Both the position numbers and the translations under genes were made by a program. DNA of 64,000 nt from assembly GCA_964609135.1 (NCBI GenBank), contig CAZSQQ010000002.1, forward strand, positions 13,349 through 77,348, given 5' to 3'. This document shows positions 1,880-52,219 of the stretch, piece by piece (within the stretch, counting starts at the first letter, position 1; each line of letters opens with the position of its first letter). Origin of the DNA: an uncultured Candidatus Saccharibacteria bacterium. GTDB taxonomy: Bacteria; Patescibacteriota; Minisyncoccia; UBA6257; Colwellbacteraceae. Under the pieces are notes generated by a model. It was not told the DNA's origin and made no database searches. It saw only the letters and a program-made list of their open reading frames with translations.

Positions 1880-1904
1880 TTGACTTAAGACGATATTAGC
1901 TAAT

Positions 1905-3927: not shown

Positions 3928-3936
3928 GGTTTTATT

Positions 3937-5568: not shown

Positions 5569-5573
5569 ATATA

Positions 5574-5930: not shown

Positions 5931-5941
5931 ACTGCAGAATA

Positions 5942-5970: not shown

Positions 5971-6089
5971 GAATTTCCATCTTATTTGACAAAATACACA
6001 TTAAATGATAGCGTTTTCAGTGAAGTTCGCGATCCTAAGCAACGTAAAGGTTCCTTGGGTTCGCTGAAACCAGGGAACATTTACATAAG

Positions 6090-8014: not shown

Positions 8015-8045
8015 AGGGTTTATCAATAGTGAATTATATAAGATA

Positions 8046-9296: not shown

Positions 9297-9297
9297 C

Positions 9298-9780
9298 CTA
9301 TCCCCAAAACTTGTGGAGCTTCGGATACTGCCTGCAAATCGGAAGATTGGCGCACCAGTTTTCCAACCCCCAATATCTTCCTGCTCTCACGGCGGCGAAG
9401 AACAGAAGAACTGCGGCGTAAACGATGTGTTCATCAACCAGAAATCCGTGCTCAACTTTCGGAAATTCCAAAACGGGGAAATAGTAAAGCAACATCAAAC
9501 CTACGCCCAGAACAGAGCTTAATCTAACCCCTATTCCCAGAATCAAAGATATTCCCAGAAGAGTCAGTCCCCATTCGTTTACAAAATTCACCCAGCCGAT
9601 ATTGGCGTCGGAGGCAAACCACTGGAATAATTCGGGGAAGGTTTTAGCGGTTGTGAGATATCCTTTGGCTGTCCAAGCGGGATCCATAATTTTGGTAATG
9701 CCGGCATAGAACATAAGCCAACCGACAGCGACTCTCGCGATAGTCAAAAACAGTGCCTCGTTTTTAGTCAAATTAGTCAT
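9298..9780 (-). CDS. DoxX family membrane protein
   Basis: 4-TM DoxX-like profile (ARVAVGWLMFYAGITKI...); start at Met9, 2 nt after upstream stop. Confidence 0.65.
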   Translation of the reverse strand: MTNLTKNEALFLTIARVAVGWLMFYAGITKIMDPAWTAKGYLTTAKTFPELFQWFASDANIGWVNFVNEWGLTLLGISLILGIGVRLSSVLGVGLMLLYYFPVLEFPKVEHGFLVDEHIVYAAVLLFFAAVRAGRYWGLENWCANLPICRQYPKLHKFWG

Positions 9781-18619: not shown

Positions 18620-18741
18620 GGTCTATATTATATCATATAGCCCTCTGCCAACAAGAAAACCAATTTACTTGAATTAAAAACTCTGCTATATTCTTACCGT
18701 CGTTCGGCAAGCTCACGATGGTGAGTTGCACCGAACCATAT

Positions 18742-35146: not shown

Positions 35147-35217
35147 TCTAAAAAAAGATTATACTATATCTTTTACAATTATACTACAATGGGTAAATAT
35201 GACTTTACACGTTTCTG

Positions 35218-36669: not shown

Positions 36670-38932
36670 ATTCACGTTACTGCTGGGGTCGCTCTTTTTC
36701 ACCTCAGCCACTATTCTCGCCTCACAAGTCCTCTTGGCCCGGGAATCCCGTGTCGCCTTCGGCTTTGGACTGGAGTTTATTATCTTTTCCTTCGCTATCG
36801 CTGGGGTTGGGTTAGGCGGACTAATTGTTTACTTCAAAAGCCTGAAACGAGATGCCGCCGAAACGGGCCGCTACTTAACCAAACTATTTCCGTTCTTTAC
36901 CATCCTTTCTCTCGTCCCATTTGTGGCGCTTCACTTTCTTCATGCGCCTACCGACTCCTCTCTTGTTAATTTTCTCGGACTATTCTTCTTTCTATCATCA
37001 CTCGCTTTTTATACAGTCGGTGGAATTTTAATTGCCACCATTCTCAAGTACCACGCCGAAAGAGTATCGCTATTATATTTTCTCGATCTTTTGGGCGGGG
37101 CGTTTGGAGCTCTGATTGTTATTTACCTGATGGATTCCTACGGCACAACAGGGACAGCCCTTTTTATTTACGCCGCGGCTCTCATCGCAACAGTGCTTTA
37201 TCTCCTCTATCGGTTTGGCTTCAAGGTTCTAACCCTTGGCGTGGTAGCGCTCTTAGCGATACCGCTCGCCTTACCGCCGGCCGAATCCTTTCAGGTTTCC
37301 TGCCGCTCGGGAAGAGACTCGTTACTAGTTGAATCCAACTCGTTTTCCCAAATTAACATCGATCCCATCTCGCCGGTTGATGCCGCCAGGTCCAAAGAAG
37401 TAATTGGAATTGATTACCAGCCGGGAAAATCAAACTTTAAAATTTTAAATCTTTCTCGTGACTGTAAACCGAGCGTTGCTTACATCCTCAAGTTTAAGGA
37501 GTTGAGTGACGTTAACTTTCTTCTCAAGAGTATCAATAACCTCCCCTACCTATTGCGGGATTACCAACACGTCTTAGAGATTGGTTCCGGCCCTGGTAAC
37601 TGGGTCATTATTGGTGCCTTAAACAAAGTTCCTGATATCACTGCCGTTGAAATCAATCCTTTGGTAATAGATACTTTCAGACGAACGGTTGACTACAATA
37701 TCTATCAAAATCCGTCGGTTAATCTCCAAGTTGTCGAGGGACGCAATTTTGTCGCTTCCTCCAGTAAAAAATATGATCTCATTTTTCTTTTTACCAAGAC
37801 TTACGGCGGCGTGGGCACGGCAGCTTATGCTTTTTCCGAGAATTATCTTTTCACCAAAGAGGCCTACCAATTATATCTTGATCGCTTGAGTCCGCACGGT
37901 GTCCTGGCTATCGCCGGCGATAATTGGTTCCATACCATCTTGACAGAGAATCTGGTGCCGACCCTTTCCTCTCGCGGACTCGATCCCATAAATCATCTGC
38001 TCATTGCGGAAGGACAAAATTATTCGCTGACCTTGGCCGCCAAAGACGGTTTTTCAGCCGCCGAACAAGGTAAGCTCGCCAGTTTCGCTCAACCGCTCGG
38101 CTATCAGCCCAAAATCCTAACTTCTACCAACGTAACACAGTACCTAGCTAAAAATACCGACGTCACCGACGACCGACCTTTTCTCATCAACACCAGCGAT
38201 CTCATCACTAGCCTCGGCAGTTCTAACGCCATCAATATCGGCTCGGAACAAAGCGGTCTCACCTTCCAGTATCTACTTTGGCTTTTGGGATTAACTGCGC
38301 TCGCTTATGCCGCCGTCATTATCCTGCCTTTCCGAAGGGGGGTTCCAGTAAATAAAAATACTGTTTATCTGACGGCTTTCTTTAGTTTAGTCGGTGTTGG
38401 TTTCATTACTTTTGAGTTGAGTCTAGTCCAAAAGTTGGCGCTTTTCTTGGAGCGACCGCAATGGCCGATCTCGGTTGGTCTGGCGGCAATTCTCTTTTTC
38501 GGCGGACTGGGAAGCTTGGTCACTTCCCGAGTGAGGTCGCTGGAACTTCGTCCTTGGGTTAGCCGGGCGGTTTTAGCTCTCTTACTGCTCTCTCTAAGCT
38601 ATCTCTATCTTTTTGATTACCTCTTCACCAACTTCTCGTCACTGCCCGAAGTTTCGAGAATTATCCTAACCGTCTCGGCCTTAGCAATCCCGAGTTTCCT
38701 GGCCGGCATGGTCTTCCCCATTGGCCTGCGCATGACTGCCCTCGTCTCCGTCGCCTTCATTCCCTGGATGTATGCTATCGACGGCGTGACTTCAGTCCTG
38801 GGCGGTGTGGTGAGTAAAATCATTTTCCTGCTTTGGGGTTTTAAGACTGAGTTTATGATTGGAATACTTATGTATTGTCTCGCCCTGCTGGTTTTGTTTA
38901 AAATAAGAATAAATGGAGACCAAACGGCTTAA
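36653..38932 (+). CDS. fusion: membrane domain plus spermidine-synthase-like domain plus second C-terminal membrane domain (paralog 2)
   Basis: VLEIGSGPGNWVI...ITAVEINPLVID...VVEGRNF, flanked by TM bundles; 17-nt overlap with paralog 1. Confidence 0.6.
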   Translation: MIWKNKFTLLLGSLFFTSATILASQVLLARESRVAFGFGLEFIIFSFAIAGVGLGGLIVYFKSLKRDAAETGRYLTKLFPFFTILSLVPFVALHFLHAPTDSSLVNFLGLFFFLSSLAFYTVGGILIATILKYHAERVSLLYFLDLLGGAFGALIVIYLMDSYGTTGTALFIYAAALIATVLYLLYRFGFKVLTLGVVALLAIPLALPPAESFQVSCRSGRDSLLVESNSFSQINIDPISPVDAARSKEVIGIDYQPGKSNFKILNLSRDCKPSVAYILKFKELSDVNFLLKSINNLPYLLRDYQHVLEIGSGPGNWVIIGALNKVPDITAVEINPLVIDTFRRTVDYNIYQNPSVNLQVVEGRNFVASSSKKYDLIFLFTKTYGGVGTAAYAFSENYLFTKEAYQLYLDRLSPHGVLAIAGDNWFHTILTENLVPTLSSRGLDPINHLLIAEGQNYSLTLAAKDGFSAAEQGKLASFAQPLGYQPKILTSTNVTQYLAKNTDVTDDRPFLINTSDLITSLGSSNAINIGSEQSGLTFQYLLWLLGLTALAYAAVIILPFRRGVPVNKNTVYLTAFFSLVGVGFITFELSLVQKLALFLERPQWPISVGLAAILFFGGLGSLVTSRVRSLELRPWVSRAVLALLLLSLSYLYLFDYLFTNFSSLPEVSRIILTVSALAIPSFLAGMVFPIGLRMTALVSVAFIPWMYAIDGVTSVLGGVVSKIIFLLWGFKTEFMIGILMYCLALLVLFKIRINGDQTA

Positions 38933-39587
38933 TGAAAAGAAAATTAGTATTATAGGACCACTCTTAGTTTTAGCCGTCGGCGTTCTTCTCATTGTCGACT
39001 ATGGGAAAAGAAGCCCAGTGGAAAATTCCGGCGATTCAATCAAGTGGAGCGCGGAGCAGGTCAAGAACGACCTTGTAAAGGGTAAAATCGATCTGGAATT
39101 CCAGAAATATTTCGACCGGGACCCGGAACGGAAAGTGCCGGATCAAAAAAATATCATCGTCGCCCCGGCTGACGGCTTAGTGACTGGGGTGACGAAAGAC
39201 CAAGACGGCGTCACTATCATCATCCACCTTTCGCTCTTTGATGTTCATGTTCAGCGGGTGCCAATTAGCGGGAAGGTTACGAATATCGAGCATGTCGGGA
39301 ACGGCTACTTCTCCGCCAAAGATCCCCAGTACCTGAACGGTGTTCAGACTGTTACCACCATCACGACCGCCGTGGGCGAGGTCAAAGTCAAACAAATCAC
39401 CGCTCTTTTTACTACTAGGATCCAAACCTACCCCAAAGTTGGTGACACGATGCGGATTGGTGATCGACTGGGGCAGATTTTGCTTGGCAGCACCGTCATT
39501 GTTATTCTTCCCGATAATACGAATATTATGGTAAGGCCGGGAGACAAAGTTTACGGAGCAGAAACCGTTATAGCTAACTACCGCTAA
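38913..39587 (+). CDS. psd: phosphatidylserine decarboxylase proenzyme (short/archaeal-type)
   Basis: SLFDVHVQRVPISG (D-x-H..P block) and C-terminal LLGSTVI (LGST self-cleavage motif). Confidence 0.6.
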   Translation: METKRLNEKKISIIGPLLVLAVGVLLIVDYGKRSPVENSGDSIKWSAEQVKNDLVKGKIDLEFQKYFDRDPERKVPDQKNIIVAPADGLVTGVTKDQDGVTIIIHLSLFDVHVQRVPISGKVTNIEHVGNGYFSAKDPQYLNGVQTVTTITTAVGEVKVKQITALFTTRIQTYPKVGDTMRIGDRLGQILLGSTVIVILPDNTNIMVRPGDKVYGAETVIANYR

Positions 39588-39594
39588 TAAAAAT

Positions 39595-41391
39595 ATGTCA
39601 TTCCCGATAAAGCGATTAAAGAAGCAGCAATCTTTTTTTCTTATAGCAACACTCTTGGCGTTGGGTTCAGTTGTCGTTCTTTACAAATATAGTTTGATCT
39701 CGCCAACCGACGAAGAGGGTGATAATAATCGGGCAGAGCTAATACGTTCTGTCTATATCGCCTCCGAAAACGATGGTTGGGCGGTCGGCAACTTGGGAAG
39801 AATTTACAGACTGGGCGAGAATGGGTGGAATTCATTTGAAAGTCCGACTAAACAAAGGCTTCACTCGGTTTCATTCGCCTCCAAAAACGATGGTTGGGCG
39901 GTGGGTTATAGGGGAACTATTATCCATTGGGACGGTGTAGCTTGGCAATTGGCCAAAAACCCTACAGACGATTGGTTAAGGTCGGTGCAAATGCTCTCGC
40001 CCGACGACGGCTGGGCCGTCGGTCACAATAGCATTCTCCACTATGACGGTAAGGAGTGGAAAGAAATAGAAAGGCCTGCCGGAGTTGATAAGCCGCTCAA
40101 AATAGTGAGTATGCTTTCCAAAGACTACGGTTGGATAGCGGGCGATGACGGCACCATCCTTCGCTTTGACGGAAAAAATTGGGAGAAGGTATCCTCCCCC
40201 ACCAACTTGAGACTTCGAGCCATATACACTCTTTCCAAAACCAATGCCTGGATAACGGGAGAAAACGGTCTAATACTGCACTGGGACGGAAATATTTGGC
40301 AAAAAGTAAAAAGCCCGGTGGATAATTGGCTAAGATCGGTCTATTTCACTTCCGAAAACGACGGTTGGGCGGTGGGCCACAACGGACACATCATCCGCTT
40401 TGACGGGCAAACTTGGCAAAAGGTTGAATCGCCCACCGACACCCGGCTCGACCAAATTGTGATGACTGGAAAAGGTGAGGGCTGGATCGTAGGCAACGGC
40501 AACCTAATCCTGAAATGGGACGGGGAGAATTGGCGAACCGAACAATCCCTGCCGATTTTCATGCTTAAACAAATTTTTGCCGTCTCTGACGAAGACGTCT
40601 GGGCGGTCGGCAATAACGGCACGATAACTCACTTTGACGGTAAGTTTTGGTCAAATACCGCGCCCACAACTAATAATTTAAATTCTCTGTATTTATCTTC
40701 GCAGAAATATGGGTGGGCGGTGGGAGACGATGGCGTGATTCTCTCCTTTGACGGCGAGAAGTGGACAGTTGAGAAAAGTCCCACCTCGGAAAGATTGGAA
40801 TACGTTTATGCCACCTCAAAGGATGACGCTTGGGCGGTTGGGTTTAACGGCACAATCATTCATTGGAATGGACAAAGCTGGCAAAGCGTAAAAAGTCCCA
40901 CCCAAGAAAGATTGCGGAATGTTTTTATACTCAATCCCCAATATGGGTACGCGGTCGGCGAACACGCTACCATCCTTTTCTGGAACGGGAAAACTTGGGA
41001 ACCCCAAAACCCGCCTCAAAGCGTTATCGGTTCCGCTCCGACGCTGCACTCCGTTTCCATATTGTCAGAACGGGATGCCTGGATAACGGGGTACGGAGTG
41101 CTTTTAAGATGGGGTGGAAAAGAATGGCGTGAGGTCGGAGACAACCACAAAAGACTCCACTCGATCTACATGCTCTCCCAAAACGACGGCTGGATTGTCG
41201 GCAACTTTGGCACTATTTACTATTGGGATGGAAAGGAGTGGACTCTTATGAAAAATGCCGCCCAGGAGAAACAACAAAGACTTCATTCAGTTTCTTTTTC
41301 CTCTCCTTCGAATGGCTGGGCGCTGGACTTCACGACCGGAACTATCTGGCGCTACAACGGAAAAACATGGGCAGAAAACAATCTGCCTTAA
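39595..41391 (+). CDS. secreted beta-propeller-like repeat protein (14 tandem ~42-aa repeats, Ycf48/BNR-like)
   Basis: Signal anchor then 14 repeats of pattern S..DGWAVG..G.I.HWDG..W. Confidence 0.55.
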   Translation: MSFPIKRLKKQQSFFLIATLLALGSVVVLYKYSLISPTDEEGDNNRAELIRSVYIASENDGWAVGNLGRIYRLGENGWNSFESPTKQRLHSVSFASKNDGWAVGYRGTIIHWDGVAWQLAKNPTDDWLRSVQMLSPDDGWAVGHNSILHYDGKEWKEIERPAGVDKPLKIVSMLSKDYGWIAGDDGTILRFDGKNWEKVSSPTNLRLRAIYTLSKTNAWITGENGLILHWDGNIWQKVKSPVDNWLRSVYFTSENDGWAVGHNGHIIRFDGQTWQKVESPTDTRLDQIVMTGKGEGWIVGNGNLILKWDGENWRTEQSLPIFMLKQIFAVSDEDVWAVGNNGTITHFDGKFWSNTAPTTNNLNSLYLSSQKYGWAVGDDGVILSFDGEKWTVEKSPTSERLEYVYATSKDDAWAVGFNGTIIHWNGQSWQSVKSPTQERLRNVFILNPQYGYAVGEHATILFWNGKTWEPQNPPQSVIGSAPTLHSVSILSERDAWITGYGVLLRWGGKEWREVGDNHKRLHSIYMLSQNDGWIVGNFGTIYYWDGKEWTLMKNAAQEKQQRLHSVSFSSPSNGWALDFTTGTIWRYNGKTWAENNLP

Positions 41392-42856
41392 ACCGATTGT
41401 TCAATCTTTCCTTTAAGTCGCTTACAACATCAGCCCTCTCGTCTAAAACATTATGAAGTTCCTCCTTGTCTTGACTAATATCATATAATTCTAAGCTTTC
41501 TTTAGACGTACCATCTTTCTCAAAAACCGTTTCTTTGATTAGCTTCCAGTTTTTATCTCTTATCACCTCAACTCTGGTTTTCTTTTCGTAATATTGATTA
41601 TTTGCGCCGGGAGTAAAATTAGAACCTGCAAATATATATTCGTTAACTTCCTTATCTTGAAATATAAGCGGGCTTAGACTTTTACCCTCGATAGGAAGCC
41701 GATTTTGAATTCCCAGTAGGTCAAGAAGTGTCGGCAAAATATCAATTTGTTCCGCCAAGCCGTCAATTCTCTTGGGAGAAATTTGTGAACTCTTTATAAG
41801 AAGAGGAATATGTAAAACGTCATCATAAAAAGTTCCCCGAAGCGGACCGCCTCGCATAAACCTGCCGTATTTGCCGAACATATCCCCGTGTTCCGAAGCA
41901 AATATGATTATCGTCTTATCGTAAATGCCCAAAGACTTTAGTTCGTTCAGCAGCTTGCCTATTTCTTTGTCGGCAGAGGTAATGCTTTCGTCGTAAAGCG
42001 CAATGAGATGTTTTACGTCTTCCTCTCCCAACAGCACAAATTTATCGGTGCCCGTCTTGGAAAAATAAACCTTGTAATACGTCTGGCCATCTATAATTTG
42101 GGGACCAGTTCTGTCAAACGTCCATAAACAATCGGAAAAATCGACGGCGCCTTTATAATTTTTATCGTAAGTCAGTCCCCCATTTTGAGAAAATGGGCAA
42201 TGAGCGTCAAATCCCTGGACCTGGACAAAAAATTTCTCTCGGCTATTCTCTTTCAACCAATCAATGGCTTTGGGCACGGTGCAAGTCACCTCTCCATACT
42301 GGCTGGGACCGCCGATTCTCGGGCCCGGTTGCCTGGGATAATTCTGTCCTTGTCCCCTAGTGCACTCTTCATAATGATCAAAACGGTTGGTCAGTCCGAA
42401 TTCGGTATTGTAATCAAAACCTCCGGTAAATGCGGCGGTTGTGTAACCGTTATCCTTTAAAACATCAATTAGGGTAGGTGTGTATTTCGATAGCGTGCTC
42501 CCATCGTACCTATTCATCACTCCGTGCTGAAATGGGAAAAGGGATGTGTAGATAGAAATGATCTCCGGGAGCGTCCAACTGGAATGTCCAAAGGCATTTT
42601 GGAATACCAAAGATTCTTTGGATAGCTTATCAACGTTGGGCGTAGTGGGTCTCGAGTAGCCGTTCCCTGACATATGGTCGTATCGAAGATTCGTCATAGT
42701 AATAAGCACAACGTTGCAGTCCTTACAGATATTGTCAGTAGGAACTGCCGTCACCTCCCGCTGGGCAGACACAGAAATTTCTTGTCTATAATTGTTGACT
42801 ATAAGGTAACCGCCTATAGCTAATACTGATAAAAATCCCAAAACAACTTTCTTCAT
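41342..42856 (-). CDS. sulfatase-like hydrolase/transferase (alkaline-phosphatase superfamily), secreted
   Basis: Signal peptide; sulfatase N-terminal-domain blocks including SLFPFQHG; lacks the CxPxR formylglycine motif, so transferase/phosphatase-like rather than true arylsulfatase. Confidence 0.65.
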   Translation of the reverse strand: MKKVVLGFLSVLAIGGYLIVNNYRQEISVSAQREVTAVPTDNICKDCNVVLITMTNLRYDHMSGNGYSRPTTPNVDKLSKESLVFQNAFGHSSWTLPEIISIYTSLFPFQHGVMNRYDGSTLSKYTPTLIDVLKDNGYTTAAFTGGFDYNTEFGLTNRFDHYEECTRGQGQNYPRQPGPRIGGPSQYGEVTCTVPKAIDWLKENSREKFFVQVQGFDAHCPFSQNGGLTYDKNYKGAVDFSDCLWTFDRTGPQIIDGQTYYKVYFSKTGTDKFVLLGEEDVKHLIALYDESITSADKEIGKLLNELKSLGIYDKTIIIFASEHGDMFGKYGRFMRGGPLRGTFYDDVLHIPLLIKSSQISPKRIDGLAEQIDILPTLLDLLGIQNRLPIEGKSLSPLIFQDKEVNEYIFAGSNFTPGANNQYYEKKTRVEVIRDKNWKLIKETVFEKDGTSKESLELYDISQDKEELHNVLDERADVVSDLKERLNNRFKADCFLPMFFRCSAR

Positions 42857-43404
42857 AAATTACAGCTGAAAGATTTGATAATTTTATCTATCTGGGCGTC
42901 ATCCGCGCCAAAAAGGTTTACTTCAAAAATTCCTTTCCCTCCGCAGTCGAAAAGGCCATACCTCGAATGGTACTTTATCAAATCTTCGGAACAAATCCCG
43001 TAGTTCATCCTCTCTCCGGCAAACAAGCTATAAATAACTCCACTTTCAACCTTCTCTTCTTTGGGCTTGAATTCCTCATCACACTTAACGATGTTAGTTA
43101 TAAATTCGGGATAAGGAGAGGTGGTGGGCTCGAAAAGAAGTTTTAAAATTTCTTTTTTGTCGTTAATAAACTTGCCGCTGTTTTCCGCTACAGATTTTAC
43201 TATTCTTGCTTTTGAATCGTCGGAAACAAGTTCGAGGGAGTCGCCGTTTTCACCGCCCACGTTATAGCTTTGCCAACTTGGCAAATTAACGCTAACTCCC
43301 CAGACGAACAATTTAATACTGGGGAAATTTAAAAAGGAAATTGCGCTAATAAGAAGAAGTAAAAGGGCTGTGAGCAAAAACTTCTTTGAGTTCGTAAAAA
43401 CCAC
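42853..43404 (-). CDS. hypothetical secreted protein (GTG start)
   Basis: 183 aa with N-terminal signal anchor. Confidence 0.4.
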   Translation of the reverse strand: MVFTNSKKFLLTALLLLLISAISFLNFPSIKLFVWGVSVNLPSWQSYNVGGENGDSLELVSDDSKARIVKSVAENSGKFINDKKEILKLLFEPTTSPYPEFITNIVKCDEEFKPKEEKVESGVIYSLFAGERMNYGICSEDLIKYHSRYGLFDCGGKGIFEVNLFGADDAQIDKIIKSFSCNL

Positions 43405-43480
43405 CTTCTAATTTTATCACAGGTTCAAATCTTTCAAGGTTTTCGGGTAATAAACGGTAAGATTTCTCAAAAAGAAAACA

Positions 43481-43496
43481 GTTTCATTAATGAAAC
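43481..43496. repeat. 16-bp perfect palindrome GTTTCATTAATGAAAC in divergent intergenic region
   Basis: Directly upstream of a TGTATAAAT -10-like box facing the truncated MopE-like copy. Confidence 0.7.
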
Positions 43497-43521
43497 CGAG
43501 GGCAGAGTGTATAAATTATAA

Positions 43522-44607
43522 ATAGGGAATCACTATAGAAGCACAGAAGGGGAAAAAGTTGCGGACAATGATACTTATACGACAGGTGCCAGCCAGCAGG
43601 TTCTCTCGGGGGCTACCCTGCCCGCGGGGTACAGGGCGGCTGTAAATGGCGCTGATTGCAACGATACCAACAACACCCTCTGGCAAAATCTGACTGGCTA
43701 TGCCGATGCCGATCTTGATACCTTTACGACCGGAGCAGGGGTGCAAGTCTGTTCTGGAGCGGCTCTGCCTTCAGGGTATAGAGCGGCTGTGAATGGGGCT
43801 GATTGCAATGACGCCAATGGCCTTATCTGGAGAAACAGGTATCGGGATGCCGACGCTGATACGTTTGGCGCGGGCGCTCTGGTCTGTGTTGGCAATGACG
43901 TTGGTTATGTTGATAACGCCAGTGATTGCAACGACGCCGATGTGAACAAGTGGCAGAATCTGACGGGCTATACCGATGCCGACAGTGACACCTTTACCAC
44001 AGGAGGAGGCGTGACAGTCTGTTCAGGAGCCTCTTTGCCTTCAGGATACAGATCAGCCGTGAATGGGGCTGATTGCAATGACGGGAACGCTTCCGTCTGG
44101 CAAAATCTTACCGGCTATACCGATTCCGATGCCGATGGTTATGGTTCATCAGGTCCCGGCAGTGTGTGTTCCGGAGCCAGTCTTCCGGGAGGCTATGTAT
44201 CTAACAACAGTGATTGTTATGATTCAAATGCTAATGCCCGTCCCGGACAGGGTAGCTTTTTTACTACCAATAGGGGTGACGGCAGTTTTGATTATGATTG
44301 TAATAGTGCCATTGCATATGACCAGCCGTACTATGACGACGTAGCCAATTTTACAATATCTCACTTTGATACTGGGCCATATGGCACTGTTTGCGTTACT
44401 GGCAGTACGGACAATTATAATCAAGTGACCAGTGCCTCTTTTTGCGGTACTTCGCATGAGAACTCCGTAGTTGCAGGTGGAACTCCATGTATTAGCTGCT
44501 CTACATCGAATTATCCTAATACTACCTGCTCAGCACCGGCTGGCGTATGCGGATACACTCAATTTTTCGGCTGTATACACAACTTCATGACCATAAGCTG
44601 TCATTAA
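43522..44607 (+). pseudogene. 5'-truncated MopE-type Cys-rich repeat protein (silent cassette / partial paralog of 44702..46189)
   Basis: Open frame from 43522 with no ATG/GTG/TTG before GTG 43741; no signal peptide; repeats of CSGASLPSGY..GADCND.N...WQNLTGYTDAD.DTYTTG; diverged C-terminal ~100 aa. Confidence 0.45.
43561..43700. repeat. IR-left: 140 bp perfectly identical in inverted orientation to 45567..45706
   Basis: Base-by-base comparison of both copies; identity begins and ends abruptly. Confidence 0.85.
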
Positions 44608-44630
44608 TGTTATTAGACGCAACTCAAATA

Positions 44631-44676
44631 TACTAAAGGTTTGCCCAGTGGTTAACCACTGGGCAAACCTTTAGTA
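44631..44676. repeat. 46-bp perfect palindrome (21-bp arms around TTAA; GTTAAC core) between the convergent MopE-like genes
   Basis: TACTAAAGGTTTGCCCAGTGG-TTAA-CCACTGGGCAAACCTTTAGTA. Confidence 0.85.
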
Positions 44677-44701
44677 TAAAAGAATAAGTCGTTGTACTGT
44701 C

Positions 44702-46189
44702 TCAGTGGCAAATCCAGGTCATCGTGGAGAGGACGTACCATCGCGTGATACTGCACCCTGGGTCGGTGTAGCCGCTGGGATTGCAAACACTCCTGGTTGA
44801 CCCGCACTCAGCGTTAGTGGCGGTCGTTCTTACCGTACCTAAGCTACATGACGGTGAGGTCTGGCCACATACACTATAGGCATCCCTTGCATAACAGGGA
44901 CCATTAGGTGCCGCGTCGCATGGTGGTCCGTTAGGATCAAGCTCGTTAACACCGCTACAATTGTAGTCAAAACTGCCATCGCCTCTGTTAGAACTATAAT
45001 AGGCGGTCTGTCCGGGCTTGGCATTGGCATTACTATCATAGCAATCGGCGCCTGAACCGGCGGTAGAAAGATAGGGCGAGGGTAGTGATGCGCCCGAACA
45101 AACAGTGTAGGGTCCAGTAGTATAAGCATCACCATCGGCATCGAGATAGCCGGTCAGGTTTTGCCAGACAGTGGCGTTCGCGTCATTGCAATCTGGGCCG
45201 TTTGCATTGGCCGTGTAACCTGATGGCAAAGAAGCCCCAGAGCAAATGGATTGGGCGGTTGAATTCGCTCTAACGCCATCGTTATCAGCATCAGTATAGC
45301 CGGTAAGGTTCTGCCAAACGGAGGCGTTCCCGTCATTGCAGTCAGTCGAATTATCAACATAACCGGCGTCATTACCTACACAGGTGGCTGAAGATACTCC
45401 ATAACCATCTCCATCTGCATCGCGGTATCTGTTTCTCCAGATAGCGCCATTGGCATCATTGCAATCGGTGGCGGTAGCTGAAGCCCTATACCCGGACGGC
45501 AAGGAGGCACCTGAACAAACTGACTGGGCACTACCAATGGTATAGGTATCACCGTCAGCATCCGTGTAGCCAGTCAGATTTTGCCAGAGGGTGTTGTTGG
45601 TATCGTTGCAATCAGCGCCATTTACAGCCGCCCTGTACCCCGCGGGCAGGGTAGCCCCCGAGAGAACCTGCTGGCTGGCACCTGTCGTATAAGTATCATT
45701 GTCCGCGTCCGCGTAGCCGGTAAGATATTGCCATTTGGTGGAATCGGTTGCGGCGGCGTCAGCTGATGTTGTAGAGGTCATAACATTTCTCCTTCTGCCA
45801 GATGTAGGAGCTGTGTCTTGAGCGTATTGAGTAAGAGAATCCGCATATCCATCGCCGTCGGTATCAACCATCCAAAGATTGGTTTGCTTAAGCTGACCGG
45901 TAGAATTTATGGCAATGGAACCGGTGACGGTAATGGTTTGACCGGAATTCCAGGCAACAGTCTGGCCGGCATTGATTGTCAAAGTTTGACTCAAGGCTAC
46001 AGTCAAGTCGCCGTTATCAACTCCGTCAACGGTGTTCGGGAAGGTGCAGCTCGAACTAATTGTGAGGGCGCCACCGGCGGAGGGAGAACAGTTTACGGCG
46101 AGCGCCGCCCCGGGGGCTAAAAAGTACAAAGCCGCCGCTATGGGCAGACCAAGTTTTATAAAAGATATTTTATTAATTCCTGATTTCAT
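44702..46189 (-). CDS. secreted MopE-type Cys-rich putative metal-binding repeat protein (full-length, signal peptide)
   Basis: Start at Met28 (46189) gives signal peptide MKSGINKISFIKLGLPIAAALYFLAPGAALA; about 6 repeats of DADGDGY/DxDxDxY + DCND.N pattern (MopE/PF11617-like). Confidence 0.6.
   Translation of the reverse strand: MKSGINKISFIKLGLPIAAALYFLAPGAALAVNCSPSAGGALTISSSCTFPNTVDGVDNGDLTVALSQTLTINAGQTVAWNSGQTITVTGSIAINSTGQLKQTNLWMVDTDGDGYADSLTQYAQDTAPTSGRRRNVMTSTTSADAAATDSTKWQYLTGYADADNDTYTTGASQQVLSGATLPAGYRAAVNGADCNDTNNTLWQNLTGYTDADGDTYTIGSAQSVCSGASLPSGYRASATATDCNDANGAIWRNRYRDADGDGYGVSSATCVGNDAGYVDNSTDCNDGNASVWQNLTGYTDADNDGVRANSTAQSICSGASLPSGYTANANGPDCNDANATVWQNLTGYLDADGDAYTTGPYTVCSGASLPSPYLSTAGSGADCYDSNANAKPGQTAYYSSNRGDGSFDYNCSGVNELDPNGPPCDAAPNGPCYARDAYSVCGQTSPSCSLGTVRTTATNAECGSTRSVCNPSGYTDPGCSITRWYVLSTMTWICH
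45567..45706. repeat. IR-right: inverted copy of 43561..43700 (140/140 identical)
   Basis: See IR-left. Confidence 0.85.
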
Positions 46190-46213
46190 AGTTCGATGTG
46201 ACTCACCATAAAT
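46190..46213 (-). repeat. conserved junction element copy F (..AATTTATGGTGAGTCACATCGAACT-ATG)
   Basis: Abuts start codon of MopE-like gene; mini-ORF MVSHIEL* with TGA overlapping ATG. Confidence 0.6.
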
Positions 46214-46221
46214 TTGCTTTC

Positions 46222-46716
46222 TTATTTTACAACAATAGTCCCGATAGCGACTCCGGCGGCATATTTCCAAGTACCTTTCTTAGTGATTCTCATTATTTTA
46301 AACTCGCCCGGAGATATCAAACCGGCGTTCAACTCTTCATTAGATCCGTCGCCTGATGGCGGATCGGAATATACTCTAATTAGCTGACTCGATTTGTTAA
46401 TAATTTTAATCCACTGACCGCTCTTAACGTTATCTGATTTAATCTCTTCGGGTTTAAAAGTAAAACTGACATTTTGCGGCGATAGCGTTGCCCCGTCATA
46501 GGCTATGGTTGCTACTTTGTTGTAGCCGGTATCGGGCGGTTCTTTGGGAGCCGCAGGATTGCTTCCAATAACCTCTCCAGCTACAGGCGATTTAGAATTA
46601 ATATACGGCGAAACAAATTTGAATAAGCTGTCTTTATAGAAATAGAGAAGTACCACAAGCAACAACGCTAAAACCAAGGCAATTTTCGAAATCATCTTTT
46701 TGGTTCTAATTTTCAT
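46222..46716 (-). CDS. secreted hypothetical protein with C-terminal cupredoxin-like beta-sandwich (related to 17215..18619 pair)
   Basis: Signal anchor; C-terminus ...GEFKIMRITKKGTWKYAAGVAIGTIVVK resembles ...GSWKYHDHLNPSKAGTVVVE. Confidence 0.45.
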   Translation of the reverse strand: MKIRTKKMISKIALVLALLLVVLLYFYKDSLFKFVSPYINSKSPVAGEVIGSNPAAPKEPPDTGYNKVATIAYDGATLSPQNVSFTFKPEEIKSDNVKSGQWIKIINKSSQLIRVYSDPPSGDGSNEELNAGLISPGEFKIMRITKKGTWKYAAGVAIGTIVVK

Positions 46717-46740
46717 GGTTCGACGCGGCTCACCATAAAT
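46717..46740 (-). repeat. conserved junction element copy E (TAA-TTTATGGTGAGCCGCGTCGAACC-ATG)
   Basis: Fills the entire 23-nt gap between two genes; mini-ORF MVSRVEP*. Confidence 0.6.
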
Positions 46741-47315
46741 TATCTAAAATTCAAATCTATATGAGAGCTGTAATTAGCCGACTTAGCCTCAAGTATGGCC
46801 GTATATATTTTATCGTGGGTGTCGTTTATTTTCCAGCTTCCGCCCCAAACTCCGTCTTCCCGTGCGCCAGATAGGAGTTTCAGATTATGGCTAACGGTTT
46901 TGGCGTCTCCTTGTGTCTTAAGGACGACTGATTCTATCGCTTCCGGAGCTTTTACCTTAACCGTAACTCTCTGCTCCTTGCCAACACTGCTGTGGAGCGG
47001 ATCAAAGACCGCTTCGGTAAAAGTCGGTATTTCTCTGGTTTGAATATTGTAGGTTTCTTTGGTATTGAAAGGCAGTTTTAAGTTAGAATCAGAGCTTTTT
47101 GTAGTGGAAGGGAGGGGCTGATTCTTGCCTCCATCAATGGTTCGATACAACTCACCATAAGAAGAAAATATGAACGACGCAAGAAACAGCAAGCCAAGGA
47201 CCGTCGCCAACGTCTTAGCGCTGTTATCTAGACTTAAGCCTTTATTTAGTCGGGACAATAAACCCTTGGACATTTTCATCGCCAATCGCGCTATTGCTCC
47301 AACTTTGATAATCAA
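46740..47315 (-). CDS. hypothetical membrane-anchored or secreted protein
   Basis: 191-aa ORF (start may be Met13/Met15); contains junction element copy G inside its coding region just after the TM. Confidence 0.4.
   Translation of the reverse strand: MIIKVGAIARLAMKMSKGLLSRLNKGLSLDNSAKTLATVLGLLFLASFIFSSYGELYRTIDGGKNQPLPSTTKSSDSNLKLPFNTKETYNIQTREIPTFTEAVFDPLHSSVGKEQRVTVKVKAPEAIESVVLKTQGDAKTVSHNLKLLSGAREDGVWGGSWKINDTHDKIYTAILEAKSANYSSHIDLNFR
47139..47160 (-). repeat. conserved junction element copy G (TTATGGTGAGTTGTATCGAACC), intragenic
   Basis: Encodes SSYGELYRTIDGG in ORF 46740..47315. Confidence 0.55.
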
Positions 47316-48234
47316 AACGAGGAGCCGTTAAGCGGTAGGAAACTTCGCCGACTTTGTCGCCATAGACAGTTAACTTACCGGAGTGAGCTTCTTTCTTATA
47401 CCAAGCCCTGCCGTCAAACCCGGGAGAAACTATAACTGATAAATTCTGCCAATTTTTGCCAAAGTCGGTAATCTGATAGAAAAGCCATAAGTCCGAGCCT
47501 TTCTCGGCATTCTTGAAATCAAGAACCGCCTCGGCAATTTTCAATTTTGAATTTTCAATTTTCAATTTAAGAACGCCTGTCGTTTCTTCTTTTACGCCAG
47601 TCATGCTGGGTAGATAAGTGGCGAATCTCTCGCCACCGATGGTATAAATCGGATCAACTGTGCCGGCATCGAGTTTTCCAGAGCCGCCACCGACTACCAC
47701 TGTGCCGCCGCTTGGGGCAATAAGCACATTGCCTTTGGTCGCGTTAGAAGTTGAGTCCAGTGTCAGAGTGCCGCTCACGGTGCTGTTTCCGAAAAGCGTG
47801 AAACCGGCGGCGTTGATGTTGCTCGCCCAAGGTGTCTGCGGTGAAGTTGCGGCGGCCGCGCTTGTCCAAGCCGTGCCATTCGAGGTTAAAACATTGCCGC
47901 TTGCTCCCGGAGCTACGGCCGTAAAGGCGGAAGCGGCATTACCAATCAAAGCTCCCGATAAGGTGGTGGCGCCGGTACCACCTTGGGCAACAGTCAAAGC
48001 GGTAGTAAGTCCGGTAATGGAGGTAATATCCGAGTTCGCGCCCGAGGCGGCCGCACCCAAATTGGTTCTCGCGCCGGAAGCGGTCGTCCCGGCGGTCCCG
48101 CCGTTCGCTATGGGAACCGGCCCGCCGCCCGTGGGCGGAGCAGCCGAGGGATTGGTCCAGGCCCTAACCACTCCGAAGAGAGCCATAAAGCCCACGAGAA
48201 CTAAAACAAAATAAAGCGGGAGGTTCTTAGTCAT
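47242..48234 (-). CDS. secreted Gly/Thr/Ala-rich protein with tail-fibre-like GGTGATT...ARTNLGAAASG repeats
   Basis: Signal anchor; low-complexity N-terminal half, beta-rich C-terminal half. Confidence 0.45.
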   Translation of the reverse strand: MTKNLPLYFVLVLVGFMALFGVVRAWTNPSAAPPTGGGPVPIANGGTAGTTASGARTNLGAAASGANSDITSITGLTTALTVAQGGTGATTLSGALIGNAASAFTAVAPGASGNVLTSNGTAWTSAAAATSPQTPWASNINAAGFTLFGNSTVSGTLTLDSTSNATKGNVLIAPSGGTVVVGGGSGKLDAGTVDPIYTIGGERFATYLPSMTGVKEETTGVLKLKIENSKLKIAEAVLDFKNAEKGSDLWLFYQITDFGKNWQNLSVIVSPGFDGRAWYKKEAHSGKLTVYGDKVGEVSYRLTAPRFDYQSWSNSAIGDENVQGFIVPTK

Positions 48235-48314
48235 TTTATCTTTATCTCATTATACATTATTCGTTTTCTACTTACTAACAAGCTATCAAGCTAACTAAAG
48301 GGCTAACAAGCTCG

Positions 48315-49703
48315 CTACGGGCTCCAGTTAACTATGACATCGTCAACTACCGGAAGTCCGCTGGAAGAGGAAGCAACCTGCATCACCTTATAACTCACCG
48401 TCCCACAGGTAGAGGTGTTGGAGCAGTTGAAGCTTATCCAGCCCAAAGCGTCATTCCAGCCCCAGCCGGAGAAGTCCCCGGTCGTGGTATTCAACAACAC
48501 CCTGTAATCCGACGTAGCGCAGGTATTGCCGATAACGCTATTGTTGCAATTGAAGCTTATCCAGCCAACGGCATCGTTCCAGCCCCAGCCGGCAAGATTG
48601 CCGGCGCCGTCATTGGTAACGTTGAAGTTGCTGGTACTGCAGATATTGCCATTGGGGGAAGTGGCGCAGTCAAAGGCTATGTAAGAACCGGCGAAGCTCT
48701 CCCAGACGGCATAACCCTGAATGAGACTGGGGGTTATGTTAACGGTCCCCGGCGAGAAGAAGTTCATCCAGCCGAAGGAATCGTTCCAGGCCCATTTGTT
48801 TACGGAGTCGATGCCGGTCGAGGGAAGAGTATAGATGCCATCTAAGAAAACCTTATATCTATAGTAGCGCTTATTGTTGTGATAAATGCCCGCGATCTGA
48901 ATGGGGCTATTGGGACCGCTCGGGCTGTAATAAGTTGCCGATGATCCGTCCGACCCCAAAAAGGCGCCGTCACCGGCAGTCTTACTGCCTCCCCAGCCGA
49001 CACCCGCAGCACAGCCTGGAGCGTCGGTTGCGCCATTGGAACAATTGGCAGTTGCCAGTTGAAACTTAACCGCTGAATCGGTGGGCAGTGAACCCTGCCA
49101 GAGAAAGCTGTTAAAAGAAACTCCGTTAGAGTAGCCGGTGTCAAAAGTGCTGGAGATTAAGTTCCCGGCAACAGGCCCGGAGATATTTTGGCTCACCTTA
49201 TAACTCACCGTCCCACAGGTAGAGGTGTTGGAGCAGTTGAAGCTTATCCAGCCCAAAGCGTCATTCCAGCCCCAGCCGGAGAAGTCCCCGGTCGTGGTAT
49301 TCAACAACACCCTGTAATCCGACGTAGCGCAGGTATTGCCGATAACGCTATTGTTGCAATTGAAGCTTATCCAGCCAACGGCATCGTTCCAGCCCCAGCC
49401 GGCAAGATTGCCGGCGCCGTCATTGGTAACGTTGAAGTTGCTGGTACTGCAGATATTGCCATTGGGGGAAGTGGCGCAGTCAAAGGCTATGTAAGAACCG
49501 GCGAAGCTCTCCCAGACGGCATAACCCTGAATGAGACTGGGGGTTATGTTAACGGTCCCCGGCGAGAAGAAGTTCATCCAGCCGAAGGAATCGTTCCAGG
49601 CCCATTTGTTGGTGGAATTAATGTTGGTGGCGGCAGAAGCAATTTCCGGAAAACCAAATGACAAAACCACAATGACCAATAAGATTGAATTAAAAATTTT
49701 CAT
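48315..49703 (-). CDS. secreted Trp/Cys-rich repeat protein (W.WND..GW..F modules) carrying a duplicated 139-aa block
   Basis: Signal peptide MKIFNSILLVIVVLSFGFPEIASA; repeats GWGWNDAVGWISFNC... Confidence 0.55.
   Translation of the reverse strand: MKIFNSILLVIVVLSFGFPEIASAATNINSTNKWAWNDSFGWMNFFSPGTVNITPSLIQGYAVWESFAGSYIAFDCATSPNGNICSTSNFNVTNDGAGNLAGWGWNDAVGWISFNCNNSVIGNTCATSDYRVLLNTTTGDFSGWGWNDALGWISFNCSNTSTCGTVSYKVSQNISGPVAGNLISSTFDTGYSNGVSFNSFLWQGSLPTDSAVKFQLATANCSNGATDAPGCAAGVGWGGSKTAGDGAFLGSDGSSATYYSPSGPNSPIQIAGIYHNNKRYYRYKVFLDGIYTLPSTGIDSVNKWAWNDSFGWMNFFSPGTVNITPSLIQGYAVWESFAGSYIAFDCATSPNGNICSTSNFNVTNDGAGNLAGWGWNDAVGWISFNCNNSVIGNTCATSDYRVLLNTTTGDFSGWGWNDALGWISFNCSNTSTCGTVSYKVMQVASSSSGLPVVDDVIVNWSP
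48383..48800. repeat. 418-bp direct repeat, copy 1 (100% identical to 49193..49610)
   Basis: Line-by-line comparison, offset 810 bp. Confidence 0.9.
49193..49610. repeat. 418-bp direct repeat, copy 2
   Basis: See copy 1. Confidence 0.9.
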
Positions 49704-49726: not shown

Positions 49727-51049
49727 TCATGGCACTTGAATTTGGATAGACCCGGGGGTGGTTGACGCATCGATCTTGGTCTGCGAAGAATAACCGGTGT
49801 TAGGACTTGTAACCGGCCCTTCAGCGCCAGACCCTCCATTCCAGTTGCTGAATTGGGTAATTTCGTTTTTGGAGCGAGTCAAAAATTCAGAAGCTTGGAT
49901 TTGCGGAGACCCCCCGAACTGACTCCACGAAACCGTAGCCGTGACTTTCTGCGTTGAGGGATCTTCCGTGCCGCCAGTCGCTACGATTGATCCGCCGGAA
50001 TCACGATTAACGTTTTCAACCGACAAATAGCGGGTGAAGGGACGGGAATTATAGGTTTGAGTGACCTCGGCCGCCGAGACCGCCCGCTTGTAAATTTTAA
50101 CGTCGTCTATCCTGTGACTCGCGGACGTTCCATCGGCGTCCCCCATCCGAACAGATCCGGCAGTATAAAGCGTTTGGCTCGCGAGAGCCGAGGTTGTCGT
50201 ACATTGAACTCCGTCCAAATAAACCTTAACAGTTGTGCCGTCATAGGTTCCAAGCAAGTGATGCCAGGCATTTAAAGTAAACGACGGGGCGCAACCCGAG
50301 GCGTTAAATTGGCTCACTCCATTAAAAACTCCGAAGAGGGCGTTGCCGCCGGAATCGGCAAATAAATTCCAGCCGCCGGCGGCGGAGAAATTATTGGCCA
50401 CCAGATCATCAAAGTTAATATGACCGGTCAAATAAACCCAGGCCGAAACAGTTATGGCTGTGGTTGGGAACCCGCTCGGGGGCGCAATCGTGACATACTG
50501 GCCGGTCCCGCTAAGAGTTAGGCAGTCGCTCACGAAACAGGAGACTGTTCTCACGGGACTGCCAGTCAAAGTCCCGTTATTGCCAACACCGGAGGAATCA
50601 TAGGCATTGACCCCTGAAGCCTCATCCAGTTTCCATTGACCAACCAAGCCGTCCCTAATCTCATTTTCAGGAACCCCCTCTTTACCGGTTACGACGGTGA
50701 AATCGGCGCCCGTTGCATTCACAAGATAATAATTGGTAGAAGGGCCCTTGCTAGCCACATTATAAAGATTGGTCCAACCGGCCTGGGAAAAAGACCGCGC
50801 GTTATCAATGAGCTCTTGACTTAACAGATTGGCGGTTTGCACGGTGCGATTTTGGGCGTTGATGCGAAGCGTCAAAACTATCGCTCCCGCCGCCGAGCCG
50901 ATAATCAAGGTTCCAATGGCCACAGCCACGAGCACCTCAACCATTGATTGACCCCTTCGATGTGACTCACTCTTCGACTCTCGCTCAGAGTGCCCTGAGC
51001 TTGTCGAATGGGCAGGGCGGGCCCTCCTCTTGTTAAAACTGGTAGGCAT
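49727..51049 (-). CDS. pilin-like protein with LamG/concanavalin-like (LamG_3) domain; start ambiguous (51049 or 50944)
   Basis: ...RRG-QSMVEVLVAVAIGTLIIG hydrophobic helix with Glu+5, then LVGQWKLDEASGVNAYDSSGVGNNGTL LamG_3 signature. Confidence 0.55.
   Translation of the reverse strand: MPTSFNKRRARPAHSTSSGHSERESKSESHRRGQSMVEVLVAVAIGTLIIGSAAGAIVLTLRINAQNRTVQTANLLSQELIDNARSFSQAGWTNLYNVASKGPSTNYYLVNATGADFTVVTGKEGVPENEIRDGLVGQWKLDEASGVNAYDSSGVGNNGTLTGSPVRTVSCFVSDCLTLSGTGQYVTIAPPSGFPTTAITVSAWVYLTGHINFDDLVANNFSAAGGWNLFADSGGNALFGVFNGVSQFNASGCAPSFTLNAWHHLLGTYDGTTVKVYLDGVQCTTTSALASQTLYTAGSVRMGDADGTSASHRIDDVKIYKRAVSAAEVTQTYNSRPFTRYLSVENVNRDSGGSIVATGGTEDPSTQKVTATVSWSQFGGSPQIQASEFLTRSKNEITQFSNWNGGSGAEGPVTSPNTGYSSQTKIDASTTPGSIQIQVP
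50956..50972 (-). repeat. conserved junction element copy H (GTGAGTCACATCGAAGG), 10 nt upstream of internal ATG-GTT-GAG (MVEV...)
   Basis: 14/16 identical to copy F. Confidence 0.5.
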
Positions 51050-51078: not shown

Positions 51079-51102
51079 GGTTCGACATAGCTCACCGTAA
51101 AT
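51079..51102 (-). repeat. conserved junction element copy A (TTTACGGTGAGCTATGTCGAACC) overlapping stop of 51092..52219
   Basis: Same orientation as other copies. Confidence 0.55.
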
Positions 51103-52219
51103 TGAAATTATAAAGAGTGGTGACCTCTGAAGCCGAGAGAGCCCGGCTATAGACACGAACTTCATCAATCGAACCGCTTAGAAATCCGGAAGCGAGGTCG
51201 CTTTTCACGGCCATAGTAAAGGGCGCGGCATTCACGTTAACCGAGGTTATGGTTGTGGCCGCGGAATTCTGAAGAGACCCGTCAATATAAATCCTTGCCG
51301 CCACCCCAGACTCAAAAACGCCAACCAAATGATGGAAAGTGCCGTCAGCTAAATTCGATGTGCCGGATACACTCACATTGGTTGTGCCATTAGAAACATA
51401 GAATTGTCCAAATCCAGAAGTTGCCGCAATATTCAGATTGTAAGCGATGGAGGCGTCTAGATCAGTATTGCGCTTGGCAATAATGTAAGCTAAAGCTGTC
51501 GAGGAAGTTTTAATCCAAGCGCTAAGAGAAAAGGAGCTCCCAACATTTAAACTTGAACCATTGCCGGCAGTGACATAATTAGAAGCGCCGTTAAAACTTA
51601 AACAGTTGCCGCTCTTGCAAGAGACTCCCGCAACCCATGTTGGCGCGGCGGCCGAAAAAGTTCCGCTATTGCCGTTCCCGGAATTGTCATTAGCCGTCGT
51701 GCCGGTATTTTCATCTAAATCCCAGTAGCCGACCAGGTCTTTTATGAGGTCGTAGTCAATCTTGCCGGACGTATTCACGGACACGAGACCAATCTGATTC
51801 GATAAAACCGATGAACTTATAACAATATTTGTACTTATATTCGGAATTCCGGTGGCCTTATCAAAAATCACGTCCCTGGAAGTATTGTTAACGGGATCGG
51901 TGAAATCAAGCTGGGGGCTAAGTGAAATTTTGGCGAGCACGGTGCCCGCCGCATAACTTGCGCCGCTCCAAATTTCGTAATAATCGTTGTCCGCTCCGGT
52001 CGGATTCCAGAATCTGATTCCCCACTGCAAACCGTTTTCTTGCGCCCTTGACCTCTGGGCGGTTTGCCTCACGTCGCTTAGAACCCTGAAAGTCATGCTG
52101 TTTAAAACCTGCTTTCCGCGAATGCCAAAATATCCCGGGGCCACAACGGCCGCGAGGAATGCCGTAACGGCCAAGACTATCAAGACTTCAACCAAAGTGA
52201 ACCCCTTCCTAGATGACAT
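51092..52219 (-). CDS. type IV pilin fused to LamG-like domain (class III signal peptide MSSRKG|FTLVEVL)
   Basis: Canonical prepilin cleavage motif G|FTLxE; LVGYWDLDENTGTTANDNSGNGNSGTF LamG_3 signature. Confidence 0.7.
   Translation of the reverse strand: MSSRKGFTLVEVLIVLAVTAFLAAVVAPGYFGIRGKQVLNSMTFRVLSDVRQTAQRSRAQENGLQWGIRFWNPTGADNDYYEIWSGASYAAGTVLAKISLSPQLDFTDPVNNTSRDVIFDKATGIPNISTNIVISSSVLSNQIGLVSVNTSGKIDYDLIKDLVGYWDLDENTGTTANDNSGNGNSGTFSAAAPTWVAGVSCKSGNCLSFNGASNYVTAGNGSSLNVGSSFSLSAWIKTSSTALAYIIAKRNTDLDASIAYNLNIAATSGFGQFYVSNGTTNVSVSGTSNLADGTFHHLVGVFESGVAARIYIDGSLQNSAATTITSVNVNAAPFTMAVKSDLASGFLSGSIDEVRVYSRALSASEVTTLYNFNLR

Follow-up and report, generated by a model that had tools for sequence, protein, structure and literature searches.

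The G segment of phage Mu and the C segment of phage P1 are switched by Gin and Cin, respectively, each an adjacent serine invertase that acts with an enhancer on 34-bp sites. In these tail-fibre switches the promoter and a constant N-terminal part lie outside the invertible segment, two C-terminal parts lie tail to tail inside it, and the crossover takes place in an inverted repeat within the coding region. We describe here a locus with the same topology, found at positions 43522-46189 of a 64,000-nucleotide stretch of DNA (hereafter the window; contig CAZSQQ010000002.1 of assembly GCA_964609135.1) from an uncultured bacterium of the Candidate Phyla Radiation (CPR; Patescibacteriota, Colwellbacteraceae). 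A full-length gene for a predicted secreted repeat protein faces a 5'-truncated paralog, and the two share a perfect inverted repeat within their coding regions. The locus differs from the phage switches in the length of this repeat (140 bp), in that no invertase was found in the window and in its product, which is not a tail fibre but a secreted repeat protein of a cell. Site-specific invertases in general, be they serine invertases (Hin, Gin, Cin) or tyrosine recombinases (Rci, PsrA), act on short cognate crossover sites of some 19-34 bp.

Long shared coding sequence is also the basis of variation at the sap locus of Campylobacter fetus, where RecA-dependent inversion takes place between sapA homologs that have conserved 5' regions of about 600 bp in common, with many cassettes. 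A surface protein is varied there through this shared 5' sequence with no need for a dedicated invertase, and a long identical 5' coding region is likewise present at our locus (140 bp, the only shared run longer than 17 bp). However, the sap promoter lies on the invertible element and the silent sap homologs are complete open reading frames (ORFs) with start codons. Neither is true here: the cassette has no start codon and no signal peptide, and the 5' end of the full-length gene lies outside the segment together with the gene cluster upstream of it. The ivr/cod locus of Streptococcus pneumoniae, the hsdS loci of Mycoplasma and the pilV shufflon of R64 have an adjacent tyrosine recombinase (PsrA/CreX, Rci) and usually several repeat pairs. 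There too, an expressed gene has repeats in common with silent, truncated gene halves that lie inverted to it, and specificity domains are exchanged; their target proteins are nevertheless unrelated to the protein considered here, and no adjacent recombinase was found at our locus among the ORFs of at least 150 residues in the 64 kb. Variation of the pilE/pilS type, finally, uses multiple silent 5'-truncated cassettes, whereas the window holds a single one.

Shufflons of the hsdS and pilV kind are among the classes cited by Milman et al. (2023; PMC9881135), who reported four sequence attributes enriched in gene-altering programmed inversions, with cut-offs of at least 44 bp for the repeat, at most 2588 bp for the distance between coding sequences (CDSs), at least 0.87 for asymmetry and at least 0.58 for orientation matching. 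Three of the four values obtained for our locus lie on the inversion side of these cut-offs, namely a repeat of 140 bp, a CDS distance of 94 bp and an asymmetry of 0.92 (1 - 39/483, with the open frame taken from 43522). The locus further resembles gene-altering inversions, or 'partial intergenic invertons' (PMC9881135; Chanin et al., PMC10028968), in having a repeat inside an expressed gene with a truncated opposite paralog nearby, so that inversion would swap the 3' part of the coding sequence; the long repeat, short CDS distance and high asymmetry are common to both. It departs from them in having no nearby recombinase, an orientation matching of only 0.25, no intra-species variant seen and a CPR host. 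A first-pass annotation of the window had recognized here the architecture of shufflons and Gin invertons. As far as topology (that of Mu G and of the shufflons) and three of the four attributes are concerned this description stands.

A full-length gene, a headless paralog and their shared repeat

The full-length gene (44702-46189, minus strand; NCBI locus HYW37_01125) starts with ATG and encodes 495 residues; it is defined by its ORF and translation, an exact database match, an AlphaFold2 (AF2) model and its place in a gene cluster. The protein is laid out as a signal peptide, a small β-rich N-terminal domain, about six 49-residue Cys/Asp repeats and a Cys-rich C-terminal domain. Its N-terminus, MKSGINKISFIKLGLPIAAALYFLAPGAALA/VNC, reads by eye as a Sec-type signal peptide. 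The corresponding coding part (residues 1-31, ...APGAALA/VNC; 46097-46189, minus strand) lies outside the segment that could invert, and residues 6-24 form a helix in the AF2 model. The paralog (43522-44607, plus strand), which we call the cassette, has 361 open codons and no signal peptide. Its frame is open from a TAA at 43519-43521, and the first in-frame ATG, GTG or TTG is the GTG at 43741; the NCBI annotation accordingly covers only 43741-44607 (288 residues, HYW37_01120). From the repeat to the stop codon the two proteins are colinear, and their divergence is greatest in the last 75-100 or so residues (proportion of nonsynonymous differences, pN, 0.46). The stop codons (44607 and 44702) are 94 bp apart, and there are only these two copies in the window. 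The picture of a full-length gene with a signal peptide facing a headless paralog, drawn in the first-pass annotation together with the strong C-terminal divergence, was thus recovered in full, the ORFs and the absent start codon by reanalysis and the signal peptide by eye.

Positions 43561-43700 of the plus strand are the exact reverse complement of 45567-45706 (140 of 140 positions). The left arm (43561-43700, plus strand) is the first 140 nt of homology in the cassette, upstream of which nothing resembles the full-length gene; the right arm (45567-45706, minus strand) lies inside the full-length gene, in repeat unit 1 (residues 161-207). The edges are abrupt: outward of 43560 and 45707 there is zero homology, and inward of 43700 and 45567 identity falls at once to the paralog level, 0.47-0.80 per 15-codon block. 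With a relaxed repeat search the pair lengthens to 167 nt at 95% identity (43561-43727 and 45540-45706). It is the only inverted exact match of at least 30 nt between separate sites in the window, the sole other inverted hit of this length being a self-palindrome at 44629-44678. Since the background identity of the two copies is about 68%, a perfect run of 140 nt is not expected by chance. The next-longest exact run common to both genes is 17 bp, which makes the 140-bp tract the only substrate for homologous recombination between them.

The repeat is in frame in both genes and encodes the same 46 residues (ADNDTYTT...WQNLTGY). Between its arms lie 1866 bp (43701-45566), a putative invertible segment that holds the two convergent variable bodies and the terminator-like hairpin that they share. 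When this segment is inverted in silico both frames stay open: the expressed side becomes an in-frame fusion of 509 residues, made of the signal peptide, the N-terminal domain, repeat 1 and the cassette body (junction peptide WQNLTGYADADLDTF), and the reciprocal product is a headless cassette of 347 codons. The earlier proposal that inversion would join the signal peptide and N-terminal domain to an alternative body is therefore borne out at the level of the reading frame. To judge from the sequence, the identity island stands in frame at the cassette's 5' edge, exactly where a switch would need it.

Divergence was counted by the method of Nei and Gojobori. Within the 140-nt repeat there are zero differences (34 synonymous sites in the 47-codon block); the one difference counted in this block falls in its boundary codon, at 43701, where the first mismatch past the repeat lies. 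Across the 194 repeat-region codons that follow the tract, the proportion of synonymous differences (pS) is 0.71, which is saturated, with dN of 0.28 and dN/dS of about 0.13; overall, pS outside the repeat is 0.71-0.76. The saturated pS and low dN/dS indicate that the copies are ancient paralogs under purifying selection. By these counts the 140-bp tract is either very young or continuously homogenized. The cassette is undecayed, with no stop codon or frameshift in its 361 codons; over the stretch that it spans it keeps all 38 of the residues that are invariant across the family in our alignment (A1), and it fits the family consensus of the DCYDSNANA[RK]PGQ...NRGDGSFDY motif. The truncated copy thus looks like a maintained coding sequence.

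Neither protein has a match in Pfam or NCBIfam at normal thresholds. The first-pass annotation had labelled both as MopE-type, and they do share with PF11617 proteins (Cu-binding_MopE, 'putative metal-binding motif') a DxDxDGY-like repeat start and paired cysteines; some relatives carry PF11617 or a 'MopE-related' name. However, the PF11617 scores of the full copy (12.5 bits, profile positions 1-10 of 30) and of the cassette (15.7 bits, positions 1-12 of 30) fall short of the gathering threshold of 27 bits, and the family gave no match at an E value of 0.01 or lower. The label is not upheld, and with a sub-threshold match the inference of metal binding is unsupported. Homologs occur in CPR bacteria, DPANN archaea and Myxococcota as hypothetical secreted repeat proteins, which share the 49-residue Asp/Cys repeats, the block DCYDSNANA[RK]PGQ..NRGDGSFDY[DN]C and a poorly conserved Cys-rich tail ending in C[RHQ]. 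The AF2 model of the 495-residue protein has a mean predicted local distance difference test score of 82.8, with a confident N-terminal domain and repeats and a poor tail; its comparison with the PDB gave no match with an E value below 1. Taken together, the signal peptide, the repeats and the pilus context described below suggest that this protein could be a surface adhesin.

The proposed inversion and competing explanations

We propose that the locus may be a two-state switch. The full-length gene would supply the promoter, the signal peptide, the N-terminal domain and repeat unit 1, and the tail-to-tail silent cassette, headless but otherwise intact, would hold an alternative body. Reciprocal recombination across the 140-bp repeat would flip the 1866 bp and exchange the C-terminal 288 residues (four or five repeats and the hypervariable Cys-rich end) for the 301 of the cassette, so that the secreted protein would be altered with no change to its export signal or anchor domain. 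Either general homologous recombination (of RecA type) or an unlinked recombinase could carry out the inversion, and the variable part might set binding specificity; recA itself does not lie in the window. As there are only two copies in the window, such a system would have two states. The layout is real and the flipping is inferred; we put the probability that this is a working C-terminal inversion switch at roughly 45%. A bolder form, in which a CPR episymbiont varies the exposed two-thirds of a secreted pilus-cluster protein by a 1.9-kb flip through homologous recombination, with no linked invertase and with the island kept perfect by selection for switching, seems to us rather doubtful.

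Relatives of the locus bear on both sides of the question. In a related CPR genome (locus L084; Ga0209514_10000046, positions 1-9416 of a 307-kb contig), gene order is the same between the pilins and the ortholog: the pilins are followed by four small genes, a 460-residue ortholog with one repeat fewer and two sulfatase genes. The N-terminal domain of our protein is 77% identical to that of this ortholog, whereas both bodies are only about 58-60% identical to it, so that the part that could be swapped is the fast-evolving part. This ortholog was uninformative for polarizing which body is ancestral, the two being equally distant from it at about 58-60%. We also screened 162 loci, looking on each for homologs on either strand as well as exact inverted repeats: 80 homologous loci of species-representative genomes, another 80 of metagenomic origin, and the two contigs that encode P0022 and P0043, the closest relatives of the N-terminal domain. 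Tandem copies on the same strand do occur among them.

Several results of these and other searches weigh against a working switch. None of the 162 loci has an opposite-strand paralog, and none has an exact inverted repeat longer than 30 nt; a single match of 30 nt (L022) is at chance level and does not lie between paralogs. The L084 ortholog adjoins the sulfatase gene directly, with neither the cassette nor a homolog of the gene at 42853-43404, and this empty site marks the cassette as a lineage-specific addition. There is no direct evidence of the second orientation: the two assembled contigs share one orientation, no chimeric protein was found in a database of 5.8 billion proteins, and an exact scan of public metagenome contigs with a 40-nt piece of the repeat gave 0 matches. 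Among the 43 ORFs of at least 150 residues in the 64 kb, none has a Pfam match to a tyrosine or serine recombinase (Resolvase, Phage_integrase and Recombinase domains included), a transposase or a reverse transcriptase, in agreement with the earlier remark that no site-specific recombinase is visible; nor was a mobile element found among them. Orientation matching is (39+94+483)/(616+1866) = 0.25, below the cut-off of 0.58, because two-thirds of the gene lie inside the segment. The signal of purifying selection in the cassette would also be carried by a paralog that had lost its 5' end recently. Lastly, the T-tail of the hairpin between the genes serves only the present orientation; after inversion the expressed gene would meet a hairpin with no U-tract, a mild asymmetry that favours the arrangement as assembled. 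What remains of the switching cassette first proposed is thus its architecture, its frames and its maintained coding sequence, and not the inversion itself, with one orientation in two contigs, no chimera and none of the 162 loci alike. A diversity-generating retroelement, which would have a reverse transcriptase and, at the 3' end of its target, a template/variable repeat pair with differences at adenines, was also considered and rejected: no reverse transcriptase domain was found in the window, and the copies are identical, inverted and located in the 5' third of the gene.

The hairpin just mentioned is a perfect 50-bp palindrome (44629-44678; 25-nt arms, central TTAA). It lies between the two stop codons, within the 94-bp gap and some 20 bp off the segment's centre, forms a 3' hairpin common to both convergent genes and is terminator-like for the minus strand (tail TATTTGAGTT), the plus-strand tail being A-rich. 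A known RNA element at this site was discarded, Rfam giving only sub-threshold hairpin noise, and no tRNA was found near the locus. Taken with the 140-bp repeat, the palindrome leaves the two copies identical at either extremity and diverged in the middle, as might be expected if an inverted duplication had later had one of its bodies replaced.

Chief among the rivals is a relic left by accident: a convergent paralog that was once expressed independently, or a captured allele, would have lost its 5' end recently, a single rearrangement or conversion would have copied 140 bp from the neighbour, and the arrangement would have no programmed function, any inversion being rare and incidental. We hold this to be possible but unlikely. 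It accounts well for an arrangement that is unique among the 162 loci and missing at the syntenic one, for the lack of a nearby recombinase, for the single orientation in both assemblies and for a terminator tail that favours the present state. Zero substitutions in the tract fit one very recent event, and recent truncation would explain the intact ORF with its low dN/dS. Yet the conversion itself is mechanistically awkward: with 17 bp as the longest other shared run and no outer homology, casual gene conversion is not an easy explanation of the tract. Moreover, the position of the tract, in frame and right at the cassette's 5' edge, is the only one that would serve a switch, and the cassette keeps all of its invariant residues with no sign of decay.

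A distinctly less likely explanation is that a de Bruijn graph assembler mixed two strain alleles or homogenized similar arms. The full-length protein is identical to MBI2592750.1 (HYW37_01125), and the 288-residue product of the GTG start to that of HYW37_01120, both from the Candidatus Colwellbacteria metagenome-assembled genome (MAG) GCA_016187165.1 (BioProject PRJNA640378). Its contig JACPKH010000011.1 (62,805 bp) is 100% identical to window positions 34702-48659, repeat and orientation included; past 48659 it differs inside the neighbouring repeat-rich gene, and it ends at about window position 49400. The second contig on record measures 87,463 bp. The assembler MEGAHIT has a default final k of 141. 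In the groundwater study of PMC7906910 each filter was assembled with MEGAHIT 1.2.9 under default settings and scaffolded with IDBA-UD, and this is most likely the study behind the MAG, judging from the JACP accession series that it shares with an NC_groundwater MAG (L002). The repeat is exactly 140 nt, that is k-1, beyond which such a graph cannot cross an exact repeat, and from this coincidence the assembled orientation reflects at most the dominant state. An artefact would also be in keeping with the 141-nt exact repeat in which the NCBI contig ends, with the disagreement of the two contig versions in the neighbouring repeat-rich gene and with the perfect palindrome at the centre of the pair. 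On the other hand, two contigs that differ elsewhere agree in sequence and orientation across 34702-48659, and there are no Ns. False joins would have to have been made twice, within the 50-bp palindrome and again at 43560/43561, neither of them supported at k of at least 59, and no simple artefact suggested itself that would yield both the inverted copies and this second junction. The contig of the window also crosses a 418-bp exact repeat, so 140 was no hard limit for this scaffold, and the 3' flanks of the hairpin differ, as would be expected for two real genes.

We may also wonder whether the plus-strand copy is simply a small gene of its own, translated from GTG 43741 into 288 residues that function alone. 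The NCBI pipeline calls it as HYW37_01120, GGAG stands 5 nt upstream of the GTG, and the ORF is intact. We nevertheless find this very unlikely. The product would be a Cys-rich repeat protein of extracellular type with no signal peptide, which is implausible, and in the AF2 model its start falls inside a β-strand of a repeat unit. Ahead of the GTG the open frame extends, conserved, over a further 73 codons, the perfect repeat among them. The upstream region of GTG 43741 is GC-rich and coding-like, unlike the 28 of 30 confident starts in which an ATG follows A/T-rich DNA. These 30 gene starts show almost no Shine-Dalgarno-like sequence, and translation initiation in this genome seems to be largely independent of it; an argument from Shine-Dalgarno sequences for or against GTG 43741 was dropped for this reason. 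In the 117-bp non-coding spacer between the cassette and a divergent gene at 42853-43404 (spacer 43405-43521), there is no in-frame start codon and no plus-strand promoter-like site. Upstream of the cassette there is also no copy of the conserved leader motif TATGGTGAGTCACATCGAAC (46191-46210, minus strand), which immediately precedes the ATG of the full-length gene and is common to neighbouring cluster genes. With no promoter-like site, no leader motif, an atypical GTG context and a start in mid-strand, the cassette is probably not expressed on its own.

Equally hard to credit, if not more so, is a silent donor for non-reciprocal, pilE/pilS-like conversion into the expressed gene: a headless, promoterless cassette with a conserved 5' flank would suit this role, and the palindrome gives 50 bp of identity downstream of both bodies in the same relative orientation, but there is only one cassette, copying would create a perfect palindrome of about 2 kb that is expected to be unstable, and for inverted copies on one molecule reciprocal inversion is simpler.

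The pilus cluster and the meaning of a switch in CPR bacteria

A type IV pilus-like cluster on the minus strand ends with the gene for the 495-residue protein. Farther up this strand are genes for four small secreted or anchored proteins of unknown family and, further upstream, for two pilin-like proteins, then PilC (T2SSF), PilB (T2SSE) and another pilin, the pilins being of the N_methyl kind. The two pilin-like proteins (49727-51049 and 51092-52219, minus strand) have both an N-terminal methylation motif and a Laminin_G_3 (ConA-like lectin) domain; next to PilC and PilB, they are candidates for tip or adhesive pilins.

The 20-nt motif TATGGTGAGYYRYRTCGAAC is found at 46191-46210, 46718-46737, 47140-47159 and 51080-51099 (all on the minus strand) and at 18717-18736 (plus strand), 5 matches against 0.01 expected, with a related sequence also ahead of the ATG at 49703. 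It ends 1-2 nt before the starts of consecutive pilus-cluster genes, one weaker copy standing 5 nt ahead of a tRNA-Asn gene. It holds a mini-ORF of seven codons, which in two cases overlaps the start as ATGA, and it may be a promoter or a short-leader element. On the far side of the pair, a minus-strand terminator-like hairpin with a T-run (43479-43498) lies upstream of the gene at 42853-43404; it would stop read-through from the pilus cluster running antisense through the cassette.

Other repeats are present in the vicinity. The ORF at 48315-49703 (minus strand), which encodes a secreted pilus-cluster protein, contains a perfect 418-bp direct repeat (48383-48800 and 49193-49610), an internal duplication of a module of about 270 residues. 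At this repeat the NCBI contig has a 67-bp indel and ends, at about 49400, in the 141-nt exact repeat; the syntenic ortholog in L084 (2362-2910) has one module only. The 418-bp repeat must have come either from duplication of a domain very recently or from scaffolding, as an artefact. A 598-residue protein (39595-41391, plus strand) is made of many BNR/Ycf48-like β-propeller repeats (PF14870, E value 2e-28), with five copies of 47-nt repeats at the DNA level (39758-41217). A protein of the RmuC family (6998-8074, minus strand; PF02646, E value 1e-55) has the only recombination-related domain found in the window; in Escherichia coli this family is linked to limiting inversions at short inverted repeats.

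The cells of CPR bacteria are tiny, their genomes are reduced and their attachment to a host is obligate, and how they recognize or change hosts is largely unknown. Their pili are the leading candidates for an attachment organelle; they have been imaged linking ultrasmall cells to hosts and are implicated in host attachment (PMC7906910). Full-text searches on inverton or phase-variation terms returned no report of inversion-based variation in CPR/Patescibacteria. If the locus is only a relic, it would show a possible origin of such switches, from an inverted paralog through 5' truncation to a homology island. If it does switch, no earlier case of surface variation by inversion would have been described in this radiation, and the locus would be a minimal form of the Mu G and shufflon design that does without a recombinase; it would mean that a long homology island, with no linked invertase, can be enough for a gene-altering inversion. 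It would then offer a concrete mechanism by which CPR bacteria could hedge their bets on host range or on the evasion of phages or immunity.

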